The translations under genes and the position numbers were made by a program. Below are positions 11,219 through 31,702 of a DNA stretch of 64,000 nucleotides, one piece after another; positions within the stretch are counted from its first letter, which is position 1; every line of letters starts with the position of its first letter. The notes below the pieces were generated by a model. The model searched no databases. It was not told the origin of the DNA and saw only the letters and a program-made list of their open reading frames with translations. Where the stretch lies: assembly GCA_000002435.2 (NCBI GenBank), contig CM018791.1. The stretch is one strand, 5' to 3'. This DNA comes from Giardia intestinalis (lineage: Eukaryota).

Positions 11219-11269
11219 AGCGTGCATTTAACAGGTGTGAATTAATAATCGGCTTTTCACTGTCCGTCA

Positions 11270-12353: not shown

Positions 12354-15300
12354 ATGCCCGCTCCGGTCTACTCTCACCAGCTAGACCGTGCACAGCCAGC
12401 GCAAAATGGAACACACTATCATCCATATGCAAAAGATGATAACATTCGCATTGAAGATCTCCAACAGCCGTCTGTTCAACTTCAGGGCAGAGATAACTAT
12501 GCAAATTTGCAGTCCATGAATGATGATCTAATGGCTTGCATATCAAACTCAGAATACACTCTAAGCAGTATTAGGCGTGACATGCAGAATCAAGCAAGGG
12601 CTTTGGGTACTAAGGCCAGCGTAAATCCAGAACTCAACGGTACTTCAAGTCCACAACAGCTAGGCCTTTCTAGGGGAGCGTCTCGCGGCGTCTCAGCAAC
12701 AACACCATCTAGACGCTACCATGACCAGGCCGACCCTCGTCCCATAGTTAGAGAGCGGCCCATGTCAGCTGACTCTGTGCGGTCTAACCTGGGCATCGCA
12801 ACCACAGAGAGCAGTGATCTCGAGGATCTGTTCATGCTTACCCCTCGATCATATGGTGTACTGGCCTCACAGCAGCCGGATTTTGCGTCATCACAGCACA
12901 TTCAGCAACGCGGGCATCGAGTTGCCAACAACAAGGATCTGTCACAGTACTATGAGGAGATAGACGCCGTAACAGCATTCAACGAGGGAATCATGCGTGA
13001 GAAGGCAGTTACAATAGATGCGTTAGAAAGGAACCTCAAGACTCTGAAGGTGGAACTAAACATAAAGGACAGGGAGATGGCTGCTGCAAGAGAACGGATA
13101 GCAGAGCTTGTTAAGGAGGTTACAGAGCGTGACAGCGAGATAAAAGGCCTCAAACATAAATTAGAAAATGTTAAACACAACGCAGAGCGGTTTATTCTGG
13201 CACGCGATGAGGAGATCGCACGTTTGGCTGAGGAGCTGGAGCAGATGGATGAGCACTATCAGCAGAAGATGAAATTGAAAGACTCTAAGCTCCACGCACA
13301 GCACGAAGAGCTAGTTCTTTTAACTGCTAAGGATGATGAAATAGCAGGACTTAGAAGCAAGCTATCGGTCCTTACAGAGCAGCTAGAGCACACAGAAAAC
13401 ACGTTTAAGGCAATAGTCAAGAGCAAAGATGAGCAGATAGAGACGCTGAAGGCCGATGTTCATGCTAAGCGTGACTATAGCCTTGAGCTCCAGCGCATCC
13501 ACGAAAGTCTATCTCAAGTTCGCAAGGACTGTGAGGAGCAGTTGCATCAGAAAGATGCCGAACTTTCCAAGCAGCGGGAGCAAGTGGAGACTGCTGAGAA
13601 GGAAAGGAGTTTGCTAGAAAATGAAGTTACTTCACTAAAGGCCATTGTAGAAAAGCAGGAGGATCTGGTTATCAAGCTCAAGGGGCAATTGGAGCGCAGT
13701 AATCCAGACGTTGAGCGACTGCAGCAGGAGCTCGATACTCTTCGAATAGAGTCACAGAAGGCTATTTCGGCCAAGGTCATAGAAGCTGAAGAGTTGAAGA
13801 GCAAGATTCACACATTAACGACTGAAATGCTCATGCTACCGACGCAGGAAGATATCCTTGAGGCACGAAACGAGGTTTCCAAGGTCACTGCATCTATGGC
13901 TGCCATGATTAAGACAAAAGATGCAGAGATCCTCAGTCTGAGGAGAAAGCTTGAAGACTATGTTGAACTATCGGAAGTTCAGCGACTGAAGGGAGAGCTT
14001 ACTCTTTCTAAGGCAGCGCTGGCAGATACCATTGTACAGAAGACGGCAGAAATCAGAGACTTGAAAGAGGAGATGGCAATTCTTCAAATCGATGAACATG
14101 CATCTGGAGCTCCTTCTGATGGTGGCAGCTTTGATGACAAGTTAAAGGACTTGGAGTCTAGTCAGAATGCGCTCGAAGTATCACTAGGCACGCAAGTTGA
14201 ACTAGGAGCGCTAAAGCGAATTTATAAGGAGGCGATGCTCGCCAGGGACCACCAGATTAAAACTCTTTCCCAGAGGATCAATGACGCAGACGCAGAGCTT
14301 GCCACTTATCGTGAGCGCATTGCTCATCTTGAAAGCACCTCGAAGGAAGCGCCCCATATGCAAGAACGTCCTGCTACAGATTCTGCTTCACCAGCCATCC
14401 ACGACCTGAGAAGCGAACTACAAAGCGTTAAGGACGCCATGGCTGCTGCAATGGTCCGTAATATGCGAGAAGTGGCTACCCTAGAACACCAAATAAACCA
14501 ACTGAAAGGTGAGAATGAGTCACTAAGGATAAAGAGGGACGATACCGTGGAGACTGTATCAATAGGCATCTGTTGTGAGCCTGAGGAGCAGAACGGTCGC
14601 GTGTCCTTTGAAGCGAGATATGCAAAATGTAGTCAGGAAAATGAGCGCCTCTCCAATGAGCTTCAGCTTATTGCACAGGAGCTGGCTAAGACACGGACGG
14701 CGTATTCAGACGTCATGAAGCAACTCAGCGGTCTGAACACAGAGCTGCTAATCACAAGAAACCAGGCTAGCGACGCGCTCAACACTCAGGCCCTTCTGGA
14801 GTCTACTCTGCAGGAGTATGAAAGGGAGGTAAGGACGCTGCGCGGTAGTCTTGAGAGCTCACTCCAGCAAAACAGAGAAGCCGATAGTGTCAACACTAAG
14901 TTGCAGGAGAGCCTCTCAGAGTCCCAGCTCTACGATCTTCAGCAAAAACTAGAGAAGTCACAGGCAGATTTAGAGCGACTGCGGGACGACTATAGCACCA
15001 TGCAAGCAACTAAGGATATGGTCATTCACAAGATCTCATCAGAGGTTATCCATCAACGCGAAATGGTTGACTTAGCCGGAGAAGACATGAACAGAAGGCT
15101 AAAGGAGGCCGAGGAAACAGTAGAAAGGCTCAATAACGAGCTTCTGACACAAAAAGAGGAGTTTGTGACGGTCGTGACAGATCTAGAACAGCAAGTGGAG
15201 AAGCTAAGCGCAGAATTACAAGGATCTCGTGAGTCTAATGAAGCCCTGATTGCACGGATGATGCGTGACATTACAGGCCTAGAAAAGGAGCGTAGCGATT

Positions 15301-17567
15301 TGGAGTCACAGCTGGAGACGGCGAAAGCCACATCCACGACTATTATAAAGGGCCTAGAAGATCAGGTGGCACAGTATGAGCAGAGGATTACAGACTCTCA
15401 ACAGGCTACCATGACCTCACAGAGCTCTGATAGACAACTTATCGAGGCCCTCACTGCTGAGCTATTCACAAACAAAGAGAAGGCCAATAAGACCATAAGT
15501 GATCTTACGGACAAGCTGAATGAGTTGCAAGAGAGGCTGAACGAGGAGAAAGAGGCAAGTGTGATCACTGTAACGCGCCTAACCAGCCAAAATAGCAATC
15601 TCATGTCTGCGACATCTAATCTTACCAAAGAATTGGAAATAACAAAAGAGTCTCTCCGCACAGTTACAGAAGAGTTGACCGGACAGATGTCAAAGATACA
15701 GCTTGATGCCAAGGAGCGAGAGCAGCTGCTTCAAAGCAAGCTTGACGAGGTTACAGCTGAAGCCGAAGCAGCTGCTATGCGCCTTCACGAGCAAGTGACT
15801 CAAAAGGACAGCGAGATAAGACAGCTTACCGATGCGCTAGCTGAGTCTGCTCTACATTTGGAGAAATTAGACACAGAGAGCAAGCAAACGATATCACAAC
15901 TAGTCAGCGAGCTGGCGGAGGCACGGGAAACCATCCAGTTCATTGAGCAAAAAAACCAGCGGGATATGTCCGAAATCAGAAACAGCATTGCTACCTTCAA
16001 GGAGACAACTATAGAGTCTCAAAGGCAACACGCTTTAGATCTAGAGCATAAGGACGCAACGATCGCGCAGTTATCCAATGAACTAGAAAGCATCAAGCAA
16101 GCCATGGAATCTGCTAATTCAGCGCATCAAGCAGTGCTTGAAAAGGTAATGAAAGAGTCTGGCGAGTTAGCTCTTCAAAACAGCAAGTTGAAGACTGAAA
16201 TCCGAGAGCTACATGAACAGTTTGCCAAGACTAATGAAGAGGCTCAGCTGGCCTTTCGTGATCAAATGGAAGGAGCTGATGTGAGAATAGGAGAGCTTCG
16301 GGCACAGGTGGAAGCACTTCAAAAGGATCTGGAGAAGATGACGGTTTCGCGAGACGTCCTCTTAGATAAGCTTTCAGCAACGCATACGAAGAACGAGACG
16401 GATTCGGTAAAGCAAGGAGTTCCTGACTACGATGCCCTATTGAGCATGAGCCAAAGTATTCTCAGCAAAGACGAAGAGATCACGACCCTACGCTCACAAG
16501 TAGAGCTCATGAATAGTAAGCTTATAGCCGAAGAGGAAAATAACAAAAGGGTTGTTGACCACCTGCAAGGAGCAATAGAAGTCATGAACACTCAATACGA
16601 GGAGCTCAGAAGCATGAAGGACTCTGTTATAGAACGGTTGACCCGCCAGGTGAGGAGCACCAGCTCACGAATGCCATCCAGACCAGATTCTGCTGCATCC
16701 TCGAGGCGGGGGTCCTCTGTTGTCAACGAAGCAGATCACAATAAGAAAATTCACGCTTTAACAAAGGAATTGAAGGAGGCCAAGGAGATCTTTATGTACA
16801 CTGTTAGTATGAAAAATGATGAGATAGAACGCCTGAAGGAACAGCTAAAAGAAAAGGAGGAATTCATAATGAGCTTGTCTGTGGGCAGTGTGCTTGCAGA
16901 AAGCTCAAGAAGGCCAACCGAGGAGCTTCTAGAGATCAAGCGTGGGATAAAAGAAAGCGCTTTTCACGCAGAGGATATTTCATGGGAACTTGAGGATTTG
17001 CAGCGGCAAAACTTAGAATTACGCGCCGAGATAGCAGCGCTTACAGAGAAGCAGGCCCTTGTTCCCGAAGCGTCAACACCACGAGGAATCACCGATATAA
17101 CTGGGTCCGCTCAGTCTGCTATGTGTAGCGCCTCCATGGTTGACTCGCTTGCAGCGCTTCACGCGGACCTGAAAGCAAAGGATGAAACAATCCTCAGTCT
17201 ACAAGGTAAGCTCGCGATGGCGCAAGAGGAGCGAGAGGCGAAGCTTACCCAATTGTCGAGAGAACTGGAGCAAACAAAAAGAGCTTTGAGGGACAAGGTT
17301 GATGAGATTGTTAACCTATTAGCTATCATAGACCGTGTGAAAACAGAGTATGAGAATTACCGGGCAAGTACCGCCGTTGAGCTTTCCGGGCTCCGAACTG
17401 CGTTAGAAAAGTATCGAGGAAGTAAAGAAATAGATGCTTCTGATGTACGGATAGCTGAGCTGGAGGCAGCACTGGAAGCAGCTAAAGAGCAACTTAGCGA
17501 GGTTCTAAAGACTAAAAATGAAGAAATCGAACAACTAAGCATTCGGCTCGCAGCTAGAAGTATTTAG
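12354..17567 (+). CDS. Giant coiled-coil protein (1737 aa), likely cytoskeletal.
   Basis: An uninterrupted 5.2 kb ORF with heptad-like E/K/L/Q-rich sequence throughout, after a 200-aa N-terminal Ser-rich head. ATG 12354 has A/T-rich upstream sequence (ctttaaaattttgg). Confidence 0.75.
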   Translation: MPAPVYSHQLDRAQPAQNGTHYHPYAKDDNIRIEDLQQPSVQLQGRDNYANLQSMNDDLMACISNSEYTLSSIRRDMQNQARALGTKASVNPELNGTSSPQQLGLSRGASRGVSATTPSRRYHDQADPRPIVRERPMSADSVRSNLGIATTESSDLEDLFMLTPRSYGVLASQQPDFASSQHIQQRGHRVANNKDLSQYYEEIDAVTAFNEGIMREKAVTIDALERNLKTLKVELNIKDREMAAARERIAELVKEVTERDSEIKGLKHKLENVKHNAERFILARDEEIARLAEELEQMDEHYQQKMKLKDSKLHAQHEELVLLTAKDDEIAGLRSKLSVLTEQLEHTENTFKAIVKSKDEQIETLKADVHAKRDYSLELQRIHESLSQVRKDCEEQLHQKDAELSKQREQVETAEKERSLLENEVTSLKAIVEKQEDLVIKLKGQLERSNPDVERLQQELDTLRIESQKAISAKVIEAEELKSKIHTLTTEMLMLPTQEDILEARNEVSKVTASMAAMIKTKDAEILSLRRKLEDYVELSEVQRLKGELTLSKAALADTIVQKTAEIRDLKEEMAILQIDEHASGAPSDGGSFDDKLKDLESSQNALEVSLGTQVELGALKRIYKEAMLARDHQIKTLSQRINDADAELATYRERIAHLESTSKEAPHMQERPATDSASPAIHDLRSELQSVKDAMAAAMVRNMREVATLEHQINQLKGENESLRIKRDDTVETVSIGICCEPEEQNGRVSFEARYAKCSQENERLSNELQLIAQELAKTRTAYSDVMKQLSGLNTELLITRNQASDALNTQALLESTLQEYEREVRTLRGSLESSLQQNREADSVNTKLQESLSESQLYDLQQKLEKSQADLERLRDDYSTMQATKDMVIHKISSEVIHQREMVDLAGEDMNRRLKEAEETVERLNNELLTQKEEFVTVVTDLEQQVEKLSAELQGSRESNEALIARMMRDITGLEKERSDLESQLETAKATSTTIIKGLEDQVAQYEQRITDSQQATMTSQSSDRQLIEALTAELFTNKEKANKTISDLTDKLNELQERLNEEKEASVITVTRLTSQNSNLMSATSNLTKELEITKESLRTVTEELTGQMSKIQLDAKEREQLLQSKLDEVTAEAEAAAMRLHEQVTQKDSEIRQLTDALAESALHLEKLDTESKQTISQLVSELAEARETIQFIEQKNQRDMSEIRNSIATFKETTIESQRQHALDLEHKDATIAQLSNELESIKQAMESANSAHQAVLEKVMKESGELALQNSKLKTEIRELHEQFAKTNEEAQLAFRDQMEGADVRIGELRAQVEALQKDLEKMTVSRDVLLDKLSATHTKNETDSVKQGVPDYDALLSMSQSILSKDEEITTLRSQVELMNSKLIAEEENNKRVVDHLQGAIEVMNTQYEELRSMKDSVIERLTRQVRSTSSRMPSRPDSAASSRRGSSVVNEADHNKKIHALTKELKEAKEIFMYTVSMKNDEIERLKEQLKEKEEFIMSLSVGSVLAESSRRPTEELLEIKRGIKESAFHAEDISWELEDLQRQNLELRAEIAALTEKQALVPEASTPRGITDITGSAQSAMCSASMVDSLAALHADLKAKDETILSLQGKLAMAQEEREAKLTQLSRELEQTKRALRDKVDEIVNLLAIIDRVKTEYENYRASTAVELSGLRTALEKYRGSKEIDASDVRIAELEAALEAAKEQLSEVLKTKNEEIEQLSIRLAARSI

Positions 17568-17572
17568 ACCAC

Positions 17573-18535
17573 TTAAGATATTCCTTCAACCTTATGAGAG
17601 ATGAATCCAGACTTGCAGCATGGACAGACTGCACGATCGGTAACTGATTCATAGACATCTAAGCAGTTACTATGGAATAAGGCACTACAACAAGAAACAG
17701 TTGAGACTGTGCAAGAGTCTTTCTCGGAGTCTGATGCTAGACTGATGAACGGTCCCTTGTATTCAAAGCTTTCAAAGCAGATGGGACATGCCATACTTTG
17801 ACGTTGACGTGTCTTCTCAATAACAGAGATCCAGTTGACTGCACGTGTGGCCATGAATGCTTCGAAGAGATCGTTAGTCTCATCTATTTCCTTTTGCAAG
17901 CGCCCTAACTCGCTGTCTAGCTTAACTCTTTGAGTAAGCAAGTAAGAATTCATATTATCTGCAGCGTGCTCTAGCTCTGCAACCAGAGCCCCTGTACTGC
18001 GCTTGCGAAGGGCTCTGTAACAGCGGCGTCCAAAATATCCCCGTATTGCTGCCTGGATGTCTCTGGCTGCTGAGATGCACATGTATGATTTCAAAAAGGA
18101 AGATTCGCGCATATTAGCAGGTGTCATACAAACTGGGCAACACCACCGAGCCTTCGACTGGGTCATCCAATTTACGAAGCACTCCTTATGAACTGCATGG
18201 CTGCAAGAAGAACATAGCATTTCAGAAGAGCCGAAGCGCTGAAGACATATAGGACAATGCCGTTCTTCCCGGACGATCCACTTTAATTCAGCTCTCCTCC
18301 ACTCTTCATCGGTCAATGGGGGAGGAAGAGTAGACGGCACAAGCTTCATGCGCTCTGCCCGCGTGCTTGGAGCTTGGCTATCGGTTGTAAACCTTGCTTT
18401 TTGGACAACACTGAAGCCTGGCTTCAGACCCATCTTGTGGAGATTATGAGACATCAGCGCTGATGATGCAGTGGCGACAGACCCTGACAAGCTTTTCAGG
18501 AGTTTCTGGGTAGAGAAGGATAAAGTAGGCCGCAT
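17573..18535 (-). CDS. Protein with two RING-type zinc fingers and an IQ motif.
   Basis: Cys/His spacing CPICLQRF...CSHAVHKEC...CPVC and a second CPICFESF...CCSALFHSNC...CPCC, plus an IQ motif IQAAIRGYFGRRCYRALRK. Real ATG at 18535. Convergent with the coiled-coil gene, 5 bp apart. Confidence 0.65.
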   Translation of the reverse strand: MRPTLSFSTQKLLKSLSGSVATASSALMSHNLHKMGLKPGFSVVQKARFTTDSQAPSTRAERMKLVPSTLPPPLTDEEWRRAELKWIVREERHCPICLQRFGSSEMLCSSCSHAVHKECFVNWMTQSKARWCCPVCMTPANMRESSFLKSYMCISAARDIQAAIRGYFGRRCYRALRKRSTGALVAELEHAADNMNSYLLTQRVKLDSELGRLQKEIDETNDLFEAFMATRAVNWISVIEKTRQRQSMACPICFESFEYKGPFISLASDSEKDSCTVSTVSCCSALFHSNCLDVYESVTDRAVCPCCKSGFISHKVEGIS

Positions 18536-18856
18536 GAAATGCCCGATTTGTTAATATTTACTATTACGCAAAATATACAGGAACAAAGATGGTCCCCTTG
18601 AAGAGGCCAGTGAAGAAGATAGTTCCCTCCCTGCCCACAGAGTCTACGTGACGCTACGGGCTCTTATTGCTGAAGTACTTGCTGACTAATTAAACTAAGC
18701 TCTTTGATAGAAAATAGATCATCGCACTACATAGGAGAATTGCATGCACAATAGCCTTACCGGCAGATAGGTAAAAAGCGAATGAAAAATTGTATTGTAC
18801 TATGAGCCAAACTTTATCTTATAAAGATTGAGGAATCCCAGGTAATATATAACGGT

Positions 18857-21800
18857 TTGAATGCCAGCAAGATTCGCGACCGCAGAGCACACTGCAATCT
18901 GGCGACTGGTTTGGCCATGCCGCTTCTTTATCCGTTAGAAACTCGGCTGGGAGCGACAAAGAGCACGTCGGGAGAACCCGGTGGGAGGGGACAGGCGGGG
19001 CTTTCTGCGCCACGGGGGGAACCACCGCAGGAGGACGTGCAGGCACGCAAGCCAGGCCACAGTAGACACGCGGGCGCCCCTGTAGACCGGGCCGGCAGCA
19101 GGCGTCCGTAGAATCCGCGCCAGAGCCAGCTGCTCAAAAAACTGGGCAGCCCCTGGTCGTGTGCAAGCCTTGCAGAGCACTGCGGCCCCCGACACTCGGC
19201 GACCCCTCTCAGAGCGGAAGACCCCGCGGGCCGCAGGCAGCAGCTCGTCGTCGGCGATGCCCCGAACGAGGGGGACGGCCCCAGCCTGCCCGCCTCCGCA
19301 GAGCTCCGGGTATCTGTAGACAAACCGGGGCTGCGCAGGGTGCGGCTCTCCCTGGCGGCCGAGGGCAGGGGTCCCCGGCAATACCAAAAAACTCCGATCA
19401 ATACATCAGCCCCGGCGCCGCCGTGTGCAAAGCAGTCTGTTCTGTGTGGCGGCCCAAGCCAGCTCGTACTGCGGCGATGGCCCGGGTGAGGGCGCCCTGC
19501 TCGCCCGACGGACCGGGGCAGGCAGGCAACAAACACCCGCTAAAGCTTTTATGCAAGGCCTGTACATATTTAATTTCACATTATTCGTTGGTCTGTTTTT
19601 AGTTTTATCGCTGCTTCTATCGGATGGGCTCTGGGGCAATGACGGCGGAGACGCGCGCCTCCGTTCTGCTCGAGCTCGCGAAGCAGGTCGTCGCTGCCCG
19701 GCGGCTGGGAGAGACGGCCGAGAGCCTCGCGCGGCGGCCGCTGCTCCTCCACCGGCACGTGCTCCGGACGGCCATCGACTGGAAGAAGATCGCCCGCGCC
19801 CTGTCCGAGGACCGGAGCAGGATCTACCACTGGTACCGCGAGACGCACTCGCGGAGCATCCTCAACGTGAAGATGACCGGCGAGGACCGCAGGGCCATCA
19901 AGGCGATGATCATCGCCGGGGTCAGGGACCGGAGCGTCCTGGGCCCGGACTTCTACCGCAGGGTCCACGAGCGCTTCGGGGCGAAGTATCCGCGCCAGGA
20001 GCTGCGGATGACGTACAACAACGCGCTCCGCACCCAGGACGTCCGCGCCGCCCTGGAGGAGCACGGGGTGGTGCTGCCGCGCCGCACATACGGCCCGAGG
20101 GCGGCCAGGCAGGAGGAGGAGGCATCTCCTGTGGCGGCCACTCCCCCGCCCCCCTGCGTTTTTGGTTGCGCCGCGCCTCCGCTGGTGCCGCCCGTCGGGG
20201 GGCCGGTCTTTGTGGTCCCGGGCGCGGTCTCTGCGCTTCTGCCCCCGCACGCGCCGGGGTGCCTCGTCCTCGCCCTCCCACCCGGGGTCGTTCCTGGGCC
20301 CGGCGTCCTCCCGCTCCAGACGGGCCAGGGCCTCCTTGGGCCGCCCGTTGCCTTCGCGTGCGTGCCATGCTTCCCCCCTGCGGGCTACGGGGGCGTCCCT
20401 GGGTGCGCTGATGCGAGCCCCAGTAAGGGTTGAGGACTGGAGAACCCGGCTTGCTTGACGATTGTCGAAGAGTGGCCGGCAGGAACAGCCGATGGTTGGA
20501 TCCCTGATCAGTGACGAGACAGTTATATCTAGAGCGTGTAGCATGCTCAACCACGGCACAGCGCAGGGCCCACCAGACACAGGCTACGACGGTCTGGATG
20601 TCGCGCAACCCGCATTCTGCGCATTGCTGAAGAGACCACACACAGCAGACGAAGGCAGGGCTCTCCCATGTGCCCAGACGACTCGAACACCGCGGTCTGG
20701 GCCAACGATCTACCAGACAGGCCCGTCCGGTAACAGGCGACTGAATGCTCTCTGGGCCGTGAGCTAAAGCTGATGTGCAGCTGGCCGGCCACGACATTCA
20801 CCCTGGCTGGCCCTCTGTCTTCACGCGCCGACACGCCAAGGAGCTGTAGGGAAGTCGTGTGCTGTCTTGGCAGGTATATTATTACCTCCATGTATGCACC
20901 CTGGATGCGGCCACCATAGCACAGCTGCATCTCTGATCGTCCTGTACACGCCTCCTGGCACGAGTAGGTGCGCAGGAGGGGGTGCACTGCCCACCGCCGA
21001 GAAATGGATGAGCTCCCCTGCTCAGGAGCCGACGACCGCCAGCCATGCCCAACGAGGTCCCCTGCAAGGAGGCCTGCTGAGCCAGCTCTTCCAGCGAGCC
21101 GTGTATCTGGAAGAGCTCCGCGTTGAATGGCTCCTTGATTAAGGAAGCCGGAGTCCAGCGCGATGTGACGCCTGTCCGTCTAAGGCTGAGACTTCGGTCT
21201 GGTGCTTGCTGCTGAGCGAGCATTAAATGAGGCTGGCCAAAGAAGCGGCTCAGGGCTTTCATAGCTCTGTGTCTTCTTGTTCTGTTCGACTGAAACACCT
21301 GATCTCAGTGCTGACTGTTGGGTCTCCTCCTGTGGACGTGGTCCGGAAGTCTCACAGAGGACCTGTTTTTTTGTAATTTCTTCTAAGACGAAGGTAAGTC
21401 GTTCTATAGGATTAGGACTACATCTGTAGAAGCACAGCCCCGGTTAAAGCAGTAACATACAATTCGCAGATGCGTAGAATGCTTGCAGGAGAAAGCAGTA
21501 AGGAAAGATATCTCGATCATGACATAGACGTGAGACAGCACCACAGGCTGCCCAAGCAACCGGTCTGGATACGAGGTGCGGCATGATTACCCTTATCTAT
21601 CCTTTGCCAGGTGAGGGAATTCGACATAGAGCCTAGTCACCCTAACGGTCAGAACCAAAGGCAAAAGCTAGACCTGTGGTGTGTTGGCAAGTGATGGACA
21701 CAAGGGCATCCCTGGATGGACTGTTGCATGAGAGGGCGAAGGCCCATAGAGATGGGTTGCTCTCAGCACCTGCAGTGGGCAGCTTGCTCCGCGGCCAACA

Positions 21801-22770
21801 AGTTGTTGGGTCAGAAACAAGCACGGACGATGCCTGTCAGATGGGTCCGAGCCAGTCACCCGATGCCCCCTACGGGCCTCGTCCAACCGACACTCTTGAT
21901 TCTTGTCGAATAGCTCAGACAGACTGGGGAGAGGAAGGACTACCAGTCACCAGAGCTTGCTGCAGTGGGAGAGCCGGGCTTGGCTCGTCCCCGTCTTCAC
22001 ACAAGAGCGGGGAAGTGGGTTTACTTGCGGGACCCTTGGGCCGCGGCTGCAGGGGGGCTCAGTACTAGAGCGCTAGAAATAGCTGGCTGTCGAAGTAAAT
22101 CGTCGCTTTCCGGGGATGACATCTTCCTCGACCAGGGCAGCAGAAGAGACCCTCAATGCATCTGCCGGTGCTGGGGTGCGTCCTACCCGTCAGCGGGGCT
22201 TCATGGCTCCACTGGAAAGCCCAATCGTCCGCTTCTTGCTGTGCTCAGAGGACAGAGAACTAGGCAGGCGTAGTCCCATCCGCCCACCGGAGGGCTATGA
22301 GCGCCCCCGTCGTCCCATTGAGCAGCACCAGGCGCAGAAGAGGTCTGCCGGAAATGCGCCAGATGCAGTCAACGCTTTTCTGGGTGTAGTGTTAACAGAA
22401 TCACACGCTACGACGCGTCCCAGACAGGCTCCACCTGGCAGCGGCGCCCCAGAGGCGGGCCCCGAGGGACAAAACATTTCTGGCCCTGCCCCTGCTCCAA
22501 TGCGAGCGGCCCGCGGACAGAGCCGAGGACGGGGGCCAGTGCTCGGCCTCCTGCTGGTGCGGTGGCGCCGGGAGACCACCGGACCATCGACTCGGCAGCG
22601 GCAACCGGTGGAACGCCCTGGGCTGCTGCTGTGCCCATGCGCCTGGAGCGCGCCGCAGCAGCCCGGGATGGGTCCGCAGACAGGCGTGCCGCCCCAGCCG
22701 TCCCGGGGGCCGGCTCCTCGTGGCGGGCGCTCCTGCTCCCTTTGACTTTTCAAATGGAGAACGCAGTTAT
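18857..22770. repeat. Inverted-repeat arm A (about 3.9 kb); mirror image of 26330-30215.
   Basis: Every ORF in this arm recurs on the opposite strand in arm B with identical translation. Examples: 334-aa 19576..20580(-) equals 28505..29509(+); 328-aa 19425..20411(+) equals 28674..29660(-). One SNP seen (c at about 21673 versus t at about 27413). Outer edge degenerates over about 30 bp near 18857-18886; inner edge is sharp at about 22770. Confidence 0.9.
19624..20433 (+). CDS. Myb/SANT-like helix-turn-helix protein with a Pro/Gly/Ala-rich C-terminal tail (copy 1, in arm A).
   Basis: ATG preceded by a strongly A/T-rich initiator (tacatatttaatttcacattattcgttggtctgtttttagttttatc). The N-terminal 170 aa align with a paralog at 53268 (W..IA..L..R......HWY.E.H...MTgEDR.A....I.G..DRS.L.P.F.......YP.....MTYNN.LR...VR.AL). 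The W-x2-IA-x2-L-x2-R-x7-W spacing resembles a Myb repeat. Confidence 0.6.
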   Translation: MGSGAMTAETRASVLLELAKQVVAARRLGETAESLARRPLLLHRHVLRTAIDWKKIARALSEDRSRIYHWYRETHSRSILNVKMTGEDRRAIKAMIIAGVRDRSVLGPDFYRRVHERFGAKYPRQELRMTYNNALRTQDVRAALEEHGVVLPRRTYGPRAARQEEEASPVAATPPPPCVFGCAAPPLVPPVGGPVFVVPGAVSALLPPHAPGCLVLALPPGVVPGPGVLPLQTGQGLLGPPVAFACVPCFPPAGYGGVPGCADASPSKG

Positions 22771-23314
22771 GGATCCTAGTTCTGCTGCAGAAGGTGCCTT
22801 ATGAGACGCAGCACAGCCACACCAAGCGGTATCGGGGCTGAACACTCCTTGGGACGGGCTCCTGGCGCATCTGAGAGACGCTCGTTGCTGTGCACTGCCT
22901 CTCGGGCCTTGGATGCACGTTGTGCAGAGCTGCAGGAGTCGCCCTTGCAGTTGTCAGTGGGCCGTTGATGGAGCCATTGAAAGCTCTGGACCGCTACTGG
23001 GCAGTACTGTCCCAGTGCACGTGTGGCAGCTTTGGCTCGCACTGGATGGTCCGTACAGATTGCAACGGAGCCACGAGGTGCATTAGTATGACATACACAT
23101 TGAGACAGTTGCAGTTCTATTCGGTCCAATCCACCTCCTTCTGGCCCTGTGCCGAGATTGCAGATTGCAAGTAGTGTTCGCGATAGACCCGGTGAGTGTT
23201 GATTCCATCAGCGCCTGTGGTCAACGTGTGCCAGAAGGATCAATCAACTGCATCAATCGACGCGGATTGACTGATGTACCGCGAGTATGTTCCTACCAAT
23301 CTATCAATCGGGCA

Positions 23315-25534
23315 ATGTTTGGCAGTTTTGTTCTCGCGGGGGTACTCGTCCAGATTGCATGGGCAGGAAAAGCAACAGAGCGCGCGCAAGAAGCTCAATG
23401 CGCAGATAACACTAATTGCGCAGCAGAAGCATGCAACGTTCTGATCGGTGGTAAATTGTATTGCTCTCGATGTAACACAGGATTTGTTCCTATCAATGGA
23501 CAATGTGCAGACAAAGAAGGTGCAACAGATAAGTGCAAAGATGGCTCCGGAGGCGATACAGCTGATCAGACCTGTGGACAGTGCGCCGAGCAGACTTTCA
23601 TGTACAAGGGCGGCTGTTACGAAGCAGCCCAGCAGCCCGGACAGACCATGTGTCAGGCGGCAGATGCTGGAGTATGCACACAAGCCGCGCAAGGATACTT
23701 CGTGCCGCCGGGCGCAGACGCCTCTCACCAATCGGTTATACCATGTGGAGACGAAGAGGAAATAACGGTTAAAAACGATAAAAAGTACAAGGGCGTGCTG
23801 CACTGCACTCGGTGTAACGCTCCCACAGAAGCAGCAGATGCTAACGCCAAGGCCGCCACATGCACTGCGTGCCAGGCAGATAGGTATCTGAAGACAGCCA
23901 AGGACCAAGCCACCTCCTGCGTGACAGAGCAAGAGTGCACCGGCACCGAAGGGTTCTTCGCGAAAAATGGCGGCACCAAAACCTGTGAGGCGTGCGCTGA
24001 AACATGCAAGACCTGTAAGACCGAGGCTGCGAAGTGCACCTCTTGCAAGGACGACAAGCCGTACCTGAAGAAGGATAATGGCAGCGACACTGGCACGTGC
24101 GTCACCGAAGCTGAGTGCAAGACTGGAAACACCCACTACCCCGACGACACTGAGCCGAAGACGTGCAAGACGTGCGCCGAGGGGACCTCCGACGGGTGTG
24201 CGACGTGCGAGAAGGGCGCCGATGGAGCAGTCGCCTGCAAGACGTGCGGAAACCAGAAGAAGGTCCAGCCAAACAAGAAGGGGTGCGTTGAGAACTGCCC
24301 CTCGAACTCCAACGATAAGAAGACCCCTGGCACCTGTGAGTGCGTTGAGGGCTACGTTCCCGAGGAGGCCGGCACCGGGTGCACGAAGAAGCCCGACCCC
24401 CCTGCGGCGCCGTGCAACACCCCCGGCTGCAAGACGTGCAGTGAGCCGAAGACAAGCAAGGAGGTGTGCACAGAGTGCGAAGACCCCAAGGCCCTCACGC
24501 CCACGGGCCAGTGCATCTACGGTTGTGAGCACCTGGAAGGCTACTACGAGGGCACCAGCGAGGGGGGCAAGAAGGCCTGCAAGAAGTGCGAGGTCGAGAA
24601 CTGCCTCCTGTGCAACGAAAACGGACAGTGCGAGACCTGCAAGGACGGATACTACAAGAAAGAAACCGCCTGTGCCAAGTGCGATACCTCGTGCAAGACG
24701 TGCGCGAACGGGGAGCCCAACGGGTGCACGAGCTGCGAGGCTAAGAAGGCCCTCAGCTACGAAGGAGAGGGCAACACGGGGACGTGCAAATCAGAATGCA
24801 AACCGGGTACTAACAACTGCGAGAAGTGCGAGCTGACAGTCGATGGCACGGCCTACTGCTCCAAGTGCAAGGACGCCAACCAGTTCCCGCAGAACGGAGT
24901 CTGCTCGGCGGCGGCCGGAAAGGCTATTACGTGCACTACCAAAGGGACTGGTGTCTGTGACAAATGCGCCAACGGGCTTCTTCGGATGAACGGAGGCTGC
25001 TATGAGACGACCAAGTTCCCTGGAAAGAGCGTCTGTGAGGAAGCAGCATCGGCTGGGGATACCTGCCAAGTAGAGGCTCCAGGCTATCATCTTAATAACA
25101 ATGACCTTGTGACTTGCTCGGCCGGATGTAAGACGTGCACTAGTAACACCGTGTGTACTGAATGCATGGATGGGTATGCAAAGACTGATAATAAGTGCAC
25201 AAAGTGTGCCACTGGCTGTGCTACTTGTGCAGGATCCGCCTCAAATTGCGACACTTGCAGCACTGGGTACTACAAGTATAAGAACGCCTGTGTGTCTTGC
25301 ACGGAAAGCAACAGTGATAAGACTATCACCGGCGTCGCCAACTGCGCCAACTGCGCTCCTCCACTCAACAATAAAGGGTCTGTCCTCTGCTACCTCGTGC
25401 AGAGTGGCGAGAACACTAACAAAAGTGGTCTCAGCGCAGGCGCCATCGCGGGCATCGCTGTTGCTGTCATCATTGTTGTCGGCGGCCTCGTCGGTTTCCT
25501 TTGCTGGTGGTTTATGTGCAGAGGCAAGGCGTAG
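23315..25534 (+). CDS. vsp: Variant-specific surface protein (VSP).
   Basis: Signal peptide MFGSFVLAGVLVQIAWA. Dozens of CXXC motifs. A GGCY motif (MNGGCYE). C-terminal TM segment followed by the invariant cytoplasmic tail CRGKA and stop. The track ORF starts 150 nt upstream (23165), but the signal peptide begins at ATG 23315. Confidence 0.9.
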   Translation: MFGSFVLAGVLVQIAWAGKATERAQEAQCADNTNCAAEACNVLIGGKLYCSRCNTGFVPINGQCADKEGATDKCKDGSGGDTADQTCGQCAEQTFMYKGGCYEAAQQPGQTMCQAADAGVCTQAAQGYFVPPGADASHQSVIPCGDEEEITVKNDKKYKGVLHCTRCNAPTEAADANAKAATCTACQADRYLKTAKDQATSCVTEQECTGTEGFFAKNGGTKTCEACAETCKTCKTEAAKCTSCKDDKPYLKKDNGSDTGTCVTEAECKTGNTHYPDDTEPKTCKTCAEGTSDGCATCEKGADGAVACKTCGNQKKVQPNKKGCVENCPSNSNDKKTPGTCECVEGYVPEEAGTGCTKKPDPPAAPCNTPGCKTCSEPKTSKEVCTECEDPKALTPTGQCIYGCEHLEGYYEGTSEGGKKACKKCEVENCLLCNENGQCETCKDGYYKKETACAKCDTSCKTCANGEPNGCTSCEAKKALSYEGEGNTGTCKSECKPGTNNCEKCELTVDGTAYCSKCKDANQFPQNGVCSAAAGKAITCTTKGTGVCDKCANGLLRMNGGCYETTKFPGKSVCEEAASAGDTCQVEAPGYHLNNNDLVTCSAGCKTCTSNTVCTECMDGYAKTDNKCTKCATGCATCAGSASNCDTCSTGYYKYKNACVSCTESNSDKTITGVANCANCAPPLNNKGSVLCYLVQSGENTNKSGLSAGAIAGIAVAVIIVVGGLVGFLCWWFMCRGKA

Positions 25535-25542
25535 ACTTAGAT

Positions 25543-25549
25543 AGTAAAT
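25543..25549 (+). terminator. Giardia-type polyadenylation signal AGTAAAT (AGTRAAY) 9 nt after the VSP stop.
   Basis: The sequence gtag acttagat AGTAAAT lies immediately 3' of the CRGKA stop, matching the known Giardia poly(A) signal position. Confidence 0.6.
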
Positions 25550-26329
25550 GCGTCGATTCGCCTTCTTAAGGCGTGGAACTCTCGTTACGTCCACACTGCA
25601 AATGTGCTTGACGATTTCTAACATCTGGATTTTGTATAGCAGTCTGGAGTCGTGTGTGTGACTTTACTTTTATTCCACACTTCCAATAGTTTGCCACTGG
25701 ACTTCGCCTGCAAATGCAGCCTAGGAGTGCATGAATAAATAAACTTACATGTCTTCTTGGTAGAGCAAAGCAGACCCCTACTTGAGGACTTGGACCCGCT
25801 ACTCTATGCTTGTATCTGACGTAGTCGCACTTAGCCAAGGTGCACACCCTACTATCACTCGATAGCTCACCCTCTCGTTGTCTTAAAGGAGCAGCTCTTA
25901 GACTGCTGCCCAGTTGACTTTACCAAGTACTTGCTTATTTAAGCGAACTGTGAACGAACTTTCTGAATACCAGGTGAACCCTTATATCTAAAGACTACGA
26001 CACGTTCCTCATGTTCCAGTTCTACTGTAGTGACCTGTGAGGATGGTTGTATCCAATCTCAGTCCTCCAGCATATAGAGTATACACTAGTAACCATTTGT
26101 ACTTCATAACCTGTCTTTGTCTTCGAACGTGACTGAGCGACCGGATTATTCGCATGGGTTTAGCCCATATCTAAATAAGATCGAGAAGAGGCCACAAGAA
26201 TACTTTCTATAGCAAAGCTGGAGCTGCTAGCTACATATGCAACAGTTAGCCCCGCACCAGCAATCGATGCAACGGGGATGTGTGCCCACCCGAGCAGTAC
26301 ACAGCTGGCTACCCGTAATTATGCTCTCC

Positions 26330-29300
26330 ATTTGAAAAGTCAAAGGGAGCAGGAGCGCCCGCCACGAGGAGCCGGCCCCCGGGACGGCTGGGGCGGCACG
26401 CCTGTCTGCGGACCCATCCCGGGCTGCTGCGGCGCGCTCCAGGCGCATGGGCACAGCAGCAGCCCAGGGCGTTCCACCGGTTGCCGCTGCCGAGTCGATG
26501 GTCCGGTGGTCTCCCGGCGCCACCGCACCAGCAGGAGGCCGAGCACTGGCCCCCGTCCTCGGCTCTGTCCGCGGGCCGCTCGCATTGGAGCAGGGGCAGG
26601 GCCAGAAATGTTTTGTCCCTCGGGGCCCGCCTCTGGGGCGCCGCTGCCAGGTGGAGCCTGTCTGGGACGCGTCGTAGCGTGTGATTCTGTTAACACTACA
26701 CCCAGAAAAGCGTTGACTGCATCTGGCGCATTTCCGGCAGACCTCTTCTGCGCCTGGTGCTGCTCAATGGGACGACGGGGGCGCTCATAGCCCTCCGGTG
26801 GGCGGATGGGACTACGCCTGCCTAGTTCTCTGTCCTCTGAGCACAGCAAGAAGCGGACGATTGGGCTTTCCAGTGGAGCCATGAAGCCCCGCTGACGGGT
26901 AGGACGCACCCCAGCACCGGCAGATGCATTGAGGGTCTCTTCTGCTGCCCTGGTCGAGGAAGATGTCATCCCCGGAAAGCGACGATTTACTTCGACAGCC
27001 AGCTATTTCTAGCGCTCTAGTACTGAGCCCCCCTGCAGCCGCGGCCCAAGGGTCCCGCAAGTAAACCCACTTCCCCGCTCTTGTGTGAAGACGGGGACGA
27101 GCCAAGCCCGGCTCTCCCACTGCAGCAAGCTCTGGTGACTGGTAGTCCTTCCTCTCCCCAGTCTGTCTGAGCTATTCGACAAGAATCAAGAGTGTCGGTT
27201 GGACGAGGCCCGTAGGGGGCATCGGGTGACTGGCTCGGACCCATCTGACAGGCATCGTCCGTGCTTGTTTCTGACCCAACAACTTGTTGGCCGCGGAGCA
27301 AGCTGCCCACTGCAGGTGCTGAGAGCAACCCATCTCTATGGGCCTTCGCCCTCTCATGCAACAGTCCATCCAGGGATGCCCTTGTGTCCATCACTTGCCA
27401 ACACACCACAGATCTAGCTTTTGCCTTTGGTTCTGACCGTTAGGGTGACTAGGCTCTATGTCGAATTCCCTCACCTGGCAAAGGATAGATAAGGGTAATC
27501 ATGCCGCACCTCGTATCCAGACCGGTTGCTTGGGCAGCCTGTGGTGCTGTCTCACGTCTATGTCATGATCGAGATATCTTTCCTTACTGCTTTCTCCTGC
27601 AAGCATTCTACGCATCTGCGAATTGTATGTTACTGCTTTAACCGGGGCTGTGCTTCTACAGATGTAGTCCTAATCCTATAGAACGACTTACCTTCGTCTT
27701 AGAAGAAATTACAAAAAAACAGGTCCTCTGTGAGACTTCCGGACCACGTCCACAGGAGGAGACCCAACAGTCAGCACTGAGATCAGGTGTTTCAGTCGAA
27801 CAGAACAAGAAGACACAGAGCTATGAAAGCCCTGAGCCGCTTCTTTGGCCAGCCTCATTTAATGCTCGCTCAGCAGCAAGCACCAGACCGAAGTCTCAGC
27901 CTTAGACGGACAGGCGTCACATCGCGCTGGACTCCGGCTTCCTTAATCAAGGAGCCATTCAACGCGGAGCTCTTCCAGATACACGGCTCGCTGGAAGAGC
28001 TGGCTCAGCAGGCCTCCTTGCAGGGGACCTCGTTGGGCATGGCTGGCGGTCGTCGGCTCCTGAGCAGGGGAGCTCATCCATTTCTCGGCGGTGGGCAGTG
28101 CACCCCCTCCTGCGCACCTACTCGTGCCAGGAGGCGTGTACAGGACGATCAGAGATGCAGCTGTGCTATGGTGGCCGCATCCAGGGTGCATACATGGAGG
28201 TAATAATATACCTGCCAAGACAGCACACGACTTCCCTACAGCTCCTTGGCGTGTCGGCGCGTGAAGACAGAGGGCCAGCCAGGGTGAATGTCGTGGCCGG
28301 CCAGCTGCACATCAGCTTTAGCTCACGGCCCAGAGAGCATTCAGTCGCCTGTTACCGGACGGGCCTGTCTGGTAGATCGTTGGCCCAGACCGCGGTGTTC
28401 GAGTCGTCTGGGCACATGGGAGAGCCCTGCCTTCGTCTGCTGTGTGTGGTCTCTTCAGCAATGCGCAGAATGCGGGTTGCGCGACATCCAGACCGTCGTA
28501 GCCTGTGTCTGGTGGGCCCTGCGCTGTGCCGTGGTTGAGCATGCTACACGCTCTAGATATAACTGTCTCGTCACTGATCAGGGATCCAACCATCGGCTGT
28601 TCCTGCCGGCCACTCTTCGACAATCGTCAAGCAAGCCGGGTTCTCCAGTCCTCAACCCTTACTGGGGCTCGCATCAGCGCACCCAGGGACGCCCCCGTAG
28701 CCCGCAGGGGGGAAGCATGGCACGCACGCGAAGGCAACGGGCGGCCCAAGGAGGCCCTGGCCCGTCTGGAGCGGGAGGACGCCGGGCCCAGGAACGACCC
28801 CGGGTGGGAGGGCGAGGACGAGGCACCCCGGCGCGTGCGGGGGCAGAAGCGCAGAGACCGCGCCCGGGACCACAAAGACCGGCCCCCCGACGGGCGGCAC
28901 CAGCGGAGGCGCGGCGCAACCAAAAACGCAGGGGGGCGGGGGAGTGGCCGCCACAGGAGATGCCTCCTCCTCCTGCCTGGCCGCCCTCGGGCCGTATGTG
29001 CGGCGCGGCAGCACCACCCCGTGCTCCTCCAGGGCGGCGCGGACGTCCTGGGTGCGGAGCGCGTTGTTGTACGTCATCCGCAGCTCCTGGCGCGGATACT
29101 TCGCCCCGAAGCGCTCGTGGACCCTGCGGTAGAAGTCCGGGCCCAGGACGCTCCGGTCCCTGACCCCGGCGATGATCATCGCCTTGATGGCCCTGCGGTC
29201 CTCGCCGGTCATCTTCACGTTGAGGATGCTCCGCGAGTGCGTCTCGCGGTACCAGTGGTAGATCCTGCTCCGGTCCTCGGACAGGGCGCGGGCGATCTTC

Positions 29301-30215
29301 TTCCAGTCGATGGCCGTCCGGAGCACGTGCCGGTGGAGGAGCAGCGGCCGCCGCGCGAGGCTCTCGGCCGTCTCTCCCAGCCGCCGGGCAGCGACGACCT
29401 GCTTCGCGAGCTCGAGCAGAACGGAGGCGCGCGTCTCCGCCGTCATTGCCCCAGAGCCCATCCGATAGAAGCAGCGATAAAACTAAAAACAGACCAACGA
29501 ATAATGTGAAATTAAATATGTACAGGCCTTGCATAAAAGCTTTAGCGGGTGTTTGTTGCCTGCCTGCCCCGGTCCGTCGGGCGAGCAGGGCGCCCTCACC
29601 CGGGCCATCGCCGCAGTACGAGCTGGCTTGGGCCGCCACACAGAACAGACTGCTTTGCACACGGCGGCGCCGGGGCTGATGTATTGATCGGAGTTTTTTG
29701 GTATTGCCGGGGACCCCTGCCCTCGGCCGCCAGGGAGAGCCGCACCCTGCGCAGCCCCGGTTTGTCTACAGATACCCGGAGCTCTGCGGAGGCGGGCAGG
29801 CTGGGGCCGTCCCCCTCGTTCGGGGCATCGCCGACGACGAGCTGCTGCCTGCGGCCCGCGGGGTCTTCCGCTCTGAGAGGGGTCGCCGAGTGTCGGGGGC
29901 CGCAGTGCTCTGCAAGGCTTGCACACGACCAGGGGCTGCCCAGTTTTTTGAGCAGCTGGCTCTGGCGCGGATTCTACGGACGCCTGCTGCCGGCCCGGTC
30001 TACAGGGGCGCCCGCGTGTCTACTGTGGCCTGGCTTGCGTGCCTGCACGTCCTCCTGCGGTGGTTCCCCCCGTGGCGCAGAAAGCCCCGCCTGTCCCCTC
30101 CCACCGGGTTCTCCCGACGTGCTCTTTGTCGCTCCCAGCCGAGTTTCTAACGGATAAAGAAGCGGCATGGCCAAACCAGTCGCCAGATTGCAGTGTGCTC
30201 TGCAGCCGGGGATCT
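26330..30215. repeat. Inverted-repeat arm B (about 3.9 kb); mirror image of 18857-22770.
   Basis: See arm A. Identical ORF translations on the opposite strand throughout. The inner edge diverges right after caaatggaga (26330 versus 22770). Confidence 0.9.
28652..29461 (-). CDS. Myb/SANT-like helix-turn-helix protein with Pro-rich tail (copy 2, in arm B).
   Basis: 269-aa translation identical to 19624..20433. ATG (cat on the + strand) at 29459-29461 with the same A/T-rich upstream context. Confidence 0.6.
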   Translation of the reverse strand: MGSGAMTAETRASVLLELAKQVVAARRLGETAESLARRPLLLHRHVLRTAIDWKKIARALSEDRSRIYHWYRETHSRSILNVKMTGEDRRAIKAMIIAGVRDRSVLGPDFYRRVHERFGAKYPRQELRMTYNNALRTQDVRAALEEHGVVLPRRTYGPRAARQEEEASPVAATPPPPCVFGCAAPPLVPPVGGPVFVVPGAVSALLPPHAPGCLVLALPPGVVPGPGVLPLQTGQGLLGPPVAFACVPCFPPAGYGGVPGCADASPSKG

Positions 30216-30913
30216 TGCTGGCATCTCACGCGACCGGGCTCTGGGTGTGCCTGCTCAACAGTAGCTACCTCATCCACAGAGTGCTGATGCAGATATTATG
30301 CGCTACGTATCAGTGACCACAGGGGCACCGATAGACAGGGTCTCAGCCTCAGTGCACAACGAAGGTTATCAAGCATAGCGAGGCTTACATACTGAGCATG
30401 GGTCCGTGCCCCGCGTGGTCTTCTTAAGAACTAGTGCATGAGTGTTTGTGAGACGATGCTATCCGTATGAGGCGGGCTATCCGTCGTACGCGAAGTGCAG
30501 TACGGCAGAAGTGGGTGATGCAGGAACCAGAGGGGGTGCTTCAGCACATCAGTCGTCGGCCCCTCTGCCTTCTGTCACGCCTGATGGACTCTCCTCTACT
30601 ATCGCAACTCAGTCGTGGTTGTCTGAGGAGAGGACTAGGTATTCAGTAGACAATGGAATCGCGTGGCCTGGACGCGATTTCGTGATGGCCAACACGGGTT
30701 ATCAGGCTGGCTGTGGTCTGGATATGTGGTACAGCTTCCTTCACTCAAGCAGGGGTTAACACCTGCACTAATACAGATCTACAATAAGACATACACCATG
30801 CCCAGTACAGTTGAAAGATAAAACAGAAAGATATTATATTAAACGATAGTTATATTTGCCGTCAATTGTTATTAATAGAGCTAACACCCCTGGTCAAAAA
30901 AACGTTCGCTGTG

Positions 30914-31702
30914 ATGTCCCGGCATTGGGTCCACACCCCGTCAAACACGATAGTATGGGCTGCAAACAGCATGGTTCCTGGCGAAGAGCTGCCTGGAGTT
31001 CCGAATACCTCTCTTCCTGGCCAAGGAGTTGTTCGGGTGGACGAATCTTTCGTCGCGAGTGTCGTGGGAAACATGAAGCAGGTTGGCAAGATAGTGTCTG
31101 TTCAGCCATCGTGTTTACACATCTACGAACCTGTCACAGCAGATGTCGTCCTTGGGCGCGTCGTTCGTCTTCTGCCGAATAAGTGGGTCCTGGACATAGG
31201 TGCAATACAGCATGCTACTCTCCACATTGATAACTTGAACATACCGGGGATCCAGCGGGTAAGGGACACTGCAGATGAAAGCAATATGCGCCAGTGGCTT
31301 GACGTGGATCAGCTTATTTCGTGCGAGGTAAAGCAGGGCTATGCACTTCTTACTCGGAGTGCACAGTTCGGGGTGTTGAACCATGGCGTACTAGTGAAGG
31401 TGCCTCCTTGCGCAGTGGGCCCATCGACTACCGCGTTTGCAAACCTGGACTCTCTGAATGTGCATGTTATTCTCGGCAGGAATGGATGGATTTGGATTTC
31501 TGAGATGCGGAATCCCAGTGATACTAGAGAGACAGTTCGAGACAGTGCATCTCCGACTCCTTCCAAGGAGCAACTGCAAGCGATATCCCATGTAGCGCAA
31601 CTTTTACAGACCATGTGTGCCGCTGGAGAGCGTGTTACTCCTGCGTCCATCCTTTCAGCAAGCAAAAGGCATCTCGAACCCGGATGCTCTCCTAAGACTT
31701 AG
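30914..31702 (+). CDS. Exosome complex RNA-binding subunit, Rrp4/Rrp40-like (S1 plus KH domains).
   Basis: S1-domain-like YEPVTADVVLGRVVRLLPNKWVLDIGA, then MRQWLDVDQLISCEVKQ...ALLTRSAQFGVL and ILGRNGWIWISE. These match the conserved Rrp4/Rrp40 blocks (GDxVIGRV...W.VDI; EGDLISAEVQ; SLHTRS.KYGKL; ILGNNGYIW). The track start at 30866 is a TTG codon; the first ATG is at 30914 after caaaaaaacg. Confidence 0.6.
   Translation: MSRHWVHTPSNTIVWAANSMVPGEELPGVPNTSLPGQGVVRVDESFVASVVGNMKQVGKIVSVQPSCLHIYEPVTADVVLGRVVRLLPNKWVLDIGAIQHATLHIDNLNIPGIQRVRDTADESNMRQWLDVDQLISCEVKQGYALLTRSAQFGVLNHGVLVKVPPCAVGPSTTAFANLDSLNVHVILGRNGWIWISEMRNPSDTRETVRDSASPTPSKEQLQAISHVAQLLQTMCAAGERVTPASILSASKRHLEPGCSPKT

Follow-up and report, generated by a model that had tools for sequence, protein, structure and literature searches.

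Why a single gene for a variant-specific surface protein (VSP) should lie between two mirror-image copies of the same 3.9 kb of DNA, and whether this arrangement plays any part in switching that gene on and off, are the questions raised by a locus on contig CM018791.1 of the Giardia intestinalis WB reference genome (GenBank assembly GCA_000002435.2). The locus was analyzed within a stretch of 64,000 nucleotides read on one strand, which is called the window throughout, and all coordinates are window positions unless a contig is named. The enclosed gene is vsp9B10A, whose expression is switched on and off and which is induced by histone deacetylase (HDAC) inhibitors (PMC7066823). The comparisons described below make it likely that the module is a long-lived palindrome with a loop, its arms homogenized by gene conversion and its loop inverted by crossover, and that the inversion is a by-product rather than a switch.

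A repeat search found one inverted repeat in the entire window (Table 1). Its arms, 3912 nt each, are reverse complements of one another, with position i of one arm pairing with position 49085-i of the other. When the core of the repeat (18882-22760 paired with 26325-30203) was compared base by base, 1 mismatch was found in 3879 nt. The extremities of the arms are diverged yet homologous, with 4 mismatches in the outermost 21 nt and 5 in the innermost 12 nt (five of the six inner-edge differences counted were transitions), and similarity drops out abruptly outside 18861/30224 and inside 22772/26313. Edges of this kind resemble the boundaries of conversion tracts. Chance cannot produce a near-perfect inverted repeat of 3.9 kb. 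There is no N in the window, and a spacer-less palindrome created by a chimeric long read is ruled out because the outer neighbors differ between the arms and the loop is unique.

The arms are richer in GC (0.60 to 0.66) than the flanks (0.49), which explains the many overlapping spurious open reading frames (ORFs) on both arm strands. Ribosomal DNA or another structured RNA was rejected as the cause of this GC richness, as no Rfam family reached its gathering score in 14000-35000. No tandem repeats or tRNAs were found.

The original prediction, made by a model that saw the sequence alone, had described mirror-image arms with a single c/t difference, a spacer whose only gene is a complete VSP gene, and flanking genes for a RING protein and an exosome subunit. 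All of this held up under the repeat search, the base comparison, and Pfam. Its reservation that the true identity of the arms might fall well below what their translations implied was not borne out by the single core mismatch. The second arm that it placed at 26330-30215 is real, but those limits were 9 to 17 nt too narrow.

Table 1. Window coordinates of the inverted-repeat module, the genes it contains, and its single-copy flanks
Feature	Position	Strand	Details and basis
RING-finger gene (KAE8302585.1), left single-copy flank	17573-18535	-	5' end faces the module; Pfam and exact protein match
Arm A	18861-22772	+	RING side; inverted-repeat search and base comparison
Part of arm in dispersed multicopy element	18861-20395	+	94-95% identical to the copy at the DH kinesin locus
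Arm gene copy 1 (GL50803_0060974 / 00d60974)	19624-20433	+	269 aa; Giardia-restricted family
Inner arm, noncoding	20903-22772	+	P15 ortholog adjoins the RING gene
Only arm-to-arm mismatch in the core	21673		C, vs T for the complement of 27412; base-by-base comparison
Unique loop	22773-26312		3540 nt; colinear with the P15 loop at ~70% identity
vsp9B10A (GL50803_101074)	23315-25534	+	Sole loop gene; Pfam VSP E=5e-153; CRGKA tail
Arm B	26313-30224	-	RRP4 side; reverse complement of arm A
Arm gene copy 2	28652-29461	-	Translation identical to copy 1
Extra element homology beyond arm B	30225-30270	-	46 nt, homologous to other element copies; absent from arm A
RRP4 exosome-subunit gene, right single-copy flank	30914-31702	+	Pfam

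The product of the loop gene (GenBank AY007596) matched KAE8302587.1, XP_001706983.1, and AAG16629.1 exactly. It has 739 amino acids (76.8 kDa) with 88 cysteines and 28 CXXC motifs, and its gene has the start context CAATGTT, features that agree with entry 88 in the supplement of Adam et al. 2010 (PMC2996952). Published vsp9B10A primers matched exactly at 23374-23396 and 25510-25531. Inside the loop, the gene is accompanied by its own flanking sequence, 542 nt upstream and 778 nt downstream.

Four consecutive proteins of the 2020 chromosome-scale WB-C6 reference (KAE8302585 to KAE8302588) were matched exactly by the RING gene, an arm gene, the VSP gene, and the second copy of the arm gene, the two arm-gene copies corresponding to KAE8302586.1 and KAE8302588.1. 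The letter "d" in WB reference gene identifiers denotes a duplicated gene (PMC7000408). The mirror structure is therefore already annotated in the public WB reference, though it lies outside the 19 inverted pairs tabulated there, which are VSP pairs only. In literature on vsp9B10, inverted repeats, and gene conversion, of which our coverage was incomplete, no account of an inverted repeat around vsp9B10A was found.

The age of the repeat can be judged from other isolates. WB (assemblage AI) was compared with DH (assemblage AII), P15 (assemblage E), GS (assemblage B), and a 39 kb assemblage A contig from a metagenome assembled from short reads with SPAdes and deposited in the European Nucleotide Archive (contig L001). 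An orthologous inverted repeat is present in P15, on a contig that also carries the orthologous RING flank (ACVC01000215; L015). Its arms, at 2778-3950 and 7279-8451, are 1173 nt each and 97.2% identical to each other, and they enclose a loop of 3328 nt. The VSP of the P15 loop is 62% identical to vsp9B10A and colinear with it over its full length, and the loop as a whole is likewise colinear with that of WB. Between the two genomes, however, the arms are only 61 to 64% identical by global alignment and 72% identical by BLAST. Only the innermost ~1.17 kb of the WB inner arm (about 21750-22900 in WB coordinates) lies within the P15 inverted repeat. The P15 repeat extends ~130 nt further inward, and over the matching stretch of the WB loop no residual inverted-repeat similarity rose above shuffled background.

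Arms have also diverged within assemblage A. Identity to the WB arm is 94.5% for the arm of L001 and 91.3% for an arm fragment of DH, vs 98.8% for adjoining genes. Put differently, arm-to-arm divergence within WB is 0.03%, compared to 5 to 9% between the arms of WB and those of other assemblage A isolates. The junction between arm A and the RING flank is identical in WB, DH, and L001, and the RING-side copy therefore predates their split. Because the duplication is older than the divergence of the isolates, the identity of the WB arms would require ongoing gene conversion from arm to arm. Together, these alignments indicate an inverted repeat that is old and probably evolves in concert by gene conversion.

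Two features of the P15 locus are of separate interest. The P15 arms show 33 differences, 14 of which are packed into a 74-nt patch (L015 3411-3484); either conversion from a third copy or an escape of this stretch from homogenization would fit. The P15 ortholog of vsp9B10A (L015 4363-6597) ends in CRRKA rather than the canonical CRGKA; vsp9B10A is among the relatively few VSP genes with a clear positional ortholog across assemblages.

The loop is found in opposite orientations in different lineages. In WB, the 5' end of the VSP gene is proximal to the RING gene and the VSP is transcribed away from it, the two genes being divergent. In P15 and L001, and probably in GS, it is the 3' end of the VSP gene that faces the RING gene. 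Next to the RING gene, P15 is colinear with WB arm A from 20903 to 22754, after which the loop is entered from the VSP 3' side. The spacing of the differences between the P15 arms, at most ~200 nt, should let a 454 assembly phase the arms, and for this reason the P15 orientation is regarded as reliable, given estimated 454 read lengths. L001 covers the RING flank and the complete arm and then enters the loop on its VSP 3' side. In the ~1 kb past the arm, it is 86 to 97% identical to WB sequence that was flipped computationally, compared to 21 to 42% for the WB orientation. That a short-read contig crossed the arm suggests that the arms of this isolate are distinguishable. GS has the 3' end of its VSP toward the RING gene with no arm between them. 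Among these four sequences, the orientation in the WB reference appears to be the odd one out, and a crossover between the arms would be the simplest explanation for loops that lie opposite ways around.

In the GS contig (L017 1-2136), ahead of the RING gene lie the VSP 3' end, at 1-675, and a short VSP-like fragment, at 1597-1791, that repeats the transmembrane-tail region. Arm sequence is absent.

These observations can be accommodated in a single scheme. Each arm consists of an outer copy of a GC-rich dispersed element, encoding a 269-amino-acid protein, and an inner ~1.9 kb of noncoding DNA, and the general homologous-recombination machinery would work on both arms. Events resolved without crossover (gene conversion) would keep the arms nearly identical to each other while they drift fast relative to those of other isolates, and events resolved with crossover would flip the loop, leaving the VSP gene in opposite orientations in different lineages. 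The module as a whole would be a structural by-product of a tendency of Giardia to form and maintain inverted duplications with spacers of 2 to 4 kb. We infer conversion and crossover between the arms from the comparisons above, and the GC richness of the arms may reflect GC-biased conversion. Inversion itself is most likely neutral. Because the VSP gene carries its own flanks between mirrored arms, inversion changes no junction within ~4 kb, and no effect on expression is expected.

The original prediction had anticipated part of this scheme, proposing that recombination between the arms could invert the spacer and that mirrored arms would leave the local context unchanged. The first proposal gains support from the VSP orientation in WB compared to P15, L001, and GS, and the second from the sequence that the VSP gene keeps around itself in the loop. 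No evidence was found for its suggestion of palindrome-driven amplification. It had offered either a recent origin or ongoing homogenization as the reason for the near identity of the arms; homogenization is now favored and a recent origin is not, given the P15 repeat and arms that are 97 to 99.97% identical within genomes but 61 to 72% (WB and P15) or 91 to 95% (assemblage A) identical between them. The comparison with other isolates that it had proposed is what brought the P15 repeat to light. The prediction overlooked a genuine gene in the arm, the dispersed family in the outer half of the arm, the existing annotation, and the class of Giardia inverted duplications already described.

Two other histories could in principle leave two nearly identical arms in the WB assembly. 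An assembler of long reads, or the polishing that follows, might have created the second arm or the loop orientation; almost perfect identity is what such an artifact would yield, and short-read assemblies of many isolates stop at the arm edge and so cannot confirm two arms. This is nonetheless quite improbable. The arms have distinct unique outer neighbors around a unique 3.5 kb loop, and neither the diverged but homologous edge bases nor the internal single-nucleotide difference is expected from copying one arm. The orthologous site of P15, assembled independently from 454 reads, likewise carries an inverted repeat, its loop about as large as that of WB, and the authors of the WB reference, who resolved duplications of up to 20 kb, annotated the duplicate deliberately through its "d" prefix (PMC7000408). 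In favor of an inverted duplication that happened once and recently in the WB lineage, with no ongoing conversion, ~2 kb at the outer end of the WB arms is unduplicated in P15, but this history is unlikely. The arm A/RING junction is common to WB (AI), DH (AII), and L001, whose arms have since diverged by 5 to 9%, and WB arms of such an age should, if unhomogenized, differ by a similar amount and not by 0.03%. P15 independently repeats the pattern, with 97% identity within its genome vs about 61 to 72% between genomes.

The remaining alternatives assign the module a function or a mobility of its own. The loop could be a programmed invertible switch, its orientation controlling or coupled to vsp9B10A expression in antigenic variation. 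The VSP in the loop is known to go on and off (PMC7066823), loop orientation varies between lineages, and inversion between mirrored 3.9 kb arms would escape short reads and most restriction mapping. Such a switch is very unlikely, as the VSP gene has 542 nt of its own 5' sequence and 778 nt of its own 3' sequence and the next 3.9 kb are identical on either side, so that no junction between promoter and gene is altered. In addition, no recombinase or other enzyme domain was found by Pfam in six frames of the arm and the 5' end of the loop, most VSPs lie outside such loops, and published work ascribes VSP switching to epigenetic or RNA-based control, with HDAC inhibitors inducing vsp9B10A (PMC7066823). 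We would likewise give little chance to a loop that flips measurably within clonal WB populations with its orientation coupled to vsp9B10A expression, whether through the direction of replication or transcription or through long-range chromatin. If true, this would add a DNA-rearrangement component to antigenic variation in Giardia that the mirrored arms had hidden from short reads and ordinary restriction mapping. Alternatively, two inverted copies of a mobile element could form a unit resembling a composite transposon, able to move the VSP gene. The outer half of the arm does belong to a dispersed family (four WB chromosome-scale sequences encode between them at least 7 protein copies that fall in a single 90%-identity cluster), the element has a sharp 5' boundary that is common to several loci, and the encoded protein is a putative DNA-binding protein. 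This alternative is extremely unlikely: no transposase, integrase, or reverse-transcriptase domain occurs in any frame, the outer ends are asymmetric by 46 nt, and there is no target-site duplication, as the left flank (...AACGGTTTGA) and the right flank (CTCACGCGACC...) form no direct repeat. Copies at the kinesin and RRP4 loci are orthologously placed in assemblages A and E and so have not moved since the split, and the P15 inverted repeat around the orthologous VSP excludes the gene of the element.

Several points weigh against a long-lived palindrome with an inverting loop. The structure and the loop orientation of WB are those of the reference assembly. The orientation in L001 can be trusted only if that isolate has either a single arm or two arms that can be told apart, and the GS VSP, matched over its conserved 3' end only, is a putative ortholog of vsp9B10A. 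The RING and RRP4 genes are not adjacent in P15, where they are internal to two contigs of 135 kb and 153 kb (L015 and L019), so that other rearrangements contribute to the difference between WB and P15. The P15 inverted repeat does not include the ~2 kb at the outer end of the WB arms (the arm gene plus 20903-21990), which was therefore duplicated, or lost in P15, after assemblages A and E split; by this comparison, the repeat has either lengthened in the A lineage or become shorter in the E lineage. A separate origin of the A and E inverted repeats at one site would be less parsimonious than a shared one.

The gene in the arm is present as two copies that point convergently at the VSP gene. 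The 269-amino-acid ORF is a genuine gene. A search of 5.8 billion proteins returned 19 homologs, of which all those with a named source were from Giardia and the remainder came from Giardia sequencing runs or metagenomes; a profile search with the family recovered 65 cluster representatives. The protein is 92% identical to its homolog in P15, 63% to that in GS, and 40 to 45% to paralogs. A conserved, helical N-terminal domain of ~150 amino acids (41 invariant positions over 16 sequences) is followed by a variable, proline-rich tail. Compared to L001, the region encoding the N-terminal domain has 4 substitutions in 477 nt, and the sequence upstream has 49 in 763 nt; the corresponding counts compared to P15 are 23 and 173.

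No Pfam domain was detected in six frames of 18800-23320, which spans the arm and the 5' end of the loop, and the 269-amino-acid family has no Pfam domain of any kind. Neither this protein nor 15 of its homologs matched Myb/SANT in Pfam, and a sequence search of the PDB was also empty. The protein is possibly DNA binding, and its fold may be weakly Myb- or homeodomain-like. GC content at third codon positions is 0.96 in the conserved N-terminal domain (19624-20103) vs 0.46 in the neighboring RING gene, an extreme that is compatible with GC-biased conversion in a family that converts often or with strong codon bias.

Two other candidates in the arm were rejected. An ORF at 22116-22745, which a gene finder also called in L001, was considered as a second arm gene, but its substitutions compared to L001 were spread evenly over codon positions (7/9/8). 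A retrotransposon remnant (GilM, GilT, or GilD, or the pseudo-reverse transcriptase found between some head-to-head VSP pairs) was also considered, and no reverse-transcriptase or other Pfam domain was present in six frames of 18800-23320.

The outer part of the arm also occurs elsewhere in the genome. At least five further WB genes (GL50803_0061066, 00103981, 00137682, 00114778, and 00112150) fall in the 90%-identity cluster of the arm protein, and together with the two arm copies they are spread over four chromosome-scale sequences. The genomic context of paralogous loci was taken from DH and P15. In DH, homology to a copy at a kinesin locus (L013) begins exactly at the edge of arm A, and this copy is also 68% identical to window positions 20903-21858. 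In P15, the 5' ~950 nt of the element adjoins RRP4, the orthologous position. The RRP4-side copy in WB looks older and more complete than its counterpart, judging from the 46-nt extension found there only and from the P15 element end beside RRP4, and the RING-side copy is a slightly truncated duplicate.

Element copies were also found to group by genome and not by locus (window 18861-19815 and 29270-30224; L013 9238-10192; L014 9236-10192; L019 8358-9315). The P15 copies at the kinesin and RRP4 loci are 98.0% identical to each other, and the kinesin-locus copy of DH shares 95% identity with the WB arms, vs only 79 to 80% between P15 and assemblage A isolates for copies at orthologous positions. 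This clustering points to ectopic gene conversion, or possibly repeated replacement, among copies at unlinked loci.

The closest known structures are in Giardia itself. Identical VSP genes in inverted pairs number 14 in WB according to Adam et al. 2010 (PMC2996952), with 2190 to 3847 bp between ORFs, and 19 according to Xu et al. 2020 (PMC7000408), and G. muris has 7 (PMC7641422). Like such pairs (the vsp1267 type), the vsp9B10A module consists of two nearly identical inverted copies around a unique spacer (~2.2 to 3.8 kb there, 3540 nt here) in a VSP-associated, gene-poor region of the same organism; identity runs past the ORF to a point of abrupt divergence, and the repeat ends short-read contigs. 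The modules differ in what is duplicated, here a gene for a 269-amino-acid hypothetical protein (60974 and d60974) with a single VSP gene in the spacer, and in arm length, 3.9 kb here vs roughly the ORF plus 0.1 to 0.7 kb there. The module is thus a variant of the known Giardia inverted pairs in which the VSP gene lies in the loop rather than being duplicated.

Similar behavior is known from more distant systems. The ampliconic palindromes P1 to P8 of the primate Y chromosome are reportedly maintained by gene conversion between their arms (Rozen et al. 2003, Nature). They too have kilobase arms that are >99.9% identical around a unique spacer that can invert, arm GC that is raised as GC-biased conversion predicts, and orthologous palindromes in diverged lineages (here, P15) with arms more alike within than between lineages. 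Their arms, however, span 9 kb to 1.45 Mb rather than 3.9 kb, their cargo is in the arms rather than in the spacer, and the host here is an asexual or rarely sexual tetraploid protist. Flip-flop isomerization over large inverted repeats occurs in plastid genomes, the yeast 2-micron plasmid, and herpes simplex virus. There, as proposed here, recombination between inverted repeats reverses a unique segment and changes nothing locally, but the orientations of the vsp9B10A loop are known from different lineages only, the locus is chromosomal, and it has no dedicated recombinase like FLP. Bacterial switches such as hin, fimS, and the shufflons share with this locus a surface-antigen gene that lies between inverted repeats and is found both ways around. 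In those switches, a site-specific recombinase acts on repeats of tens of base pairs, and a promoter or coding end changes its position with respect to a partner that stays in place; nothing of this kind is seen here.

As an example of concerted evolution and inversion around a model antigen gene, the module is clean and open to experiment; it is not a new kind of system, and it most likely plays no part in regulation. It matters in part because vsp9B10A is among the few VSPs that have been studied experimentally for a long time and for which a monoclonal antibody and tagged lines exist. Designs for knock-in, tagging, or PCR that extend more than ~0.5 to 0.8 kb beyond vsp9B10A enter a perfect 3.9 kb inverted repeat, the outer half of which recurs at no fewer than 5 other loci. 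Giardia is tetraploid and binucleate, and its sexual cycle is debated; in such an organism, the locus also provides a clean natural system in which mitotic gene conversion and crossover can be measured. It further makes cheaply testable whether DNA rearrangement accompanies VSP switching. More generally, inverted duplications with spacers of 2 to 4 kb occur in Giardia outside VSP coding regions as well, and both their persistence and their concerted evolution can span assemblages.

Judged from gene order, the module (18536-30913) lies where the synteny of assemblages A and E breaks. Synteny in Giardia is known to break at regions of multigene families (PMC7000408). In P15, another VSP gene and an unrelated gene follow the inverted repeat, and a truncated element, a zinc-finger gene, and a gene for an 855-amino-acid VSP lie upstream of RRP4.

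In dozens of Giardia runs, nearly all short-read contigs carrying the RING gene (for example, L002 to L010) end 20 to 460 nt from the edge of arm A (~18877-19321), and such ends are a convenient sign that a short-read assembly has not resolved the locus. To the left of the RING gene, 12354-17567 encodes a 1737-amino-acid protein with only faint coiled-coil matches in Pfam, preceded at 10313-12307 by two tandem genes with matches to annexin families (Annexin and ANXE1_4th). Genes on this side are colinear in every contig with the RING flank that was examined, whether from assemblage A, B, or E, and the left flank is therefore ordinary single-copy DNA.

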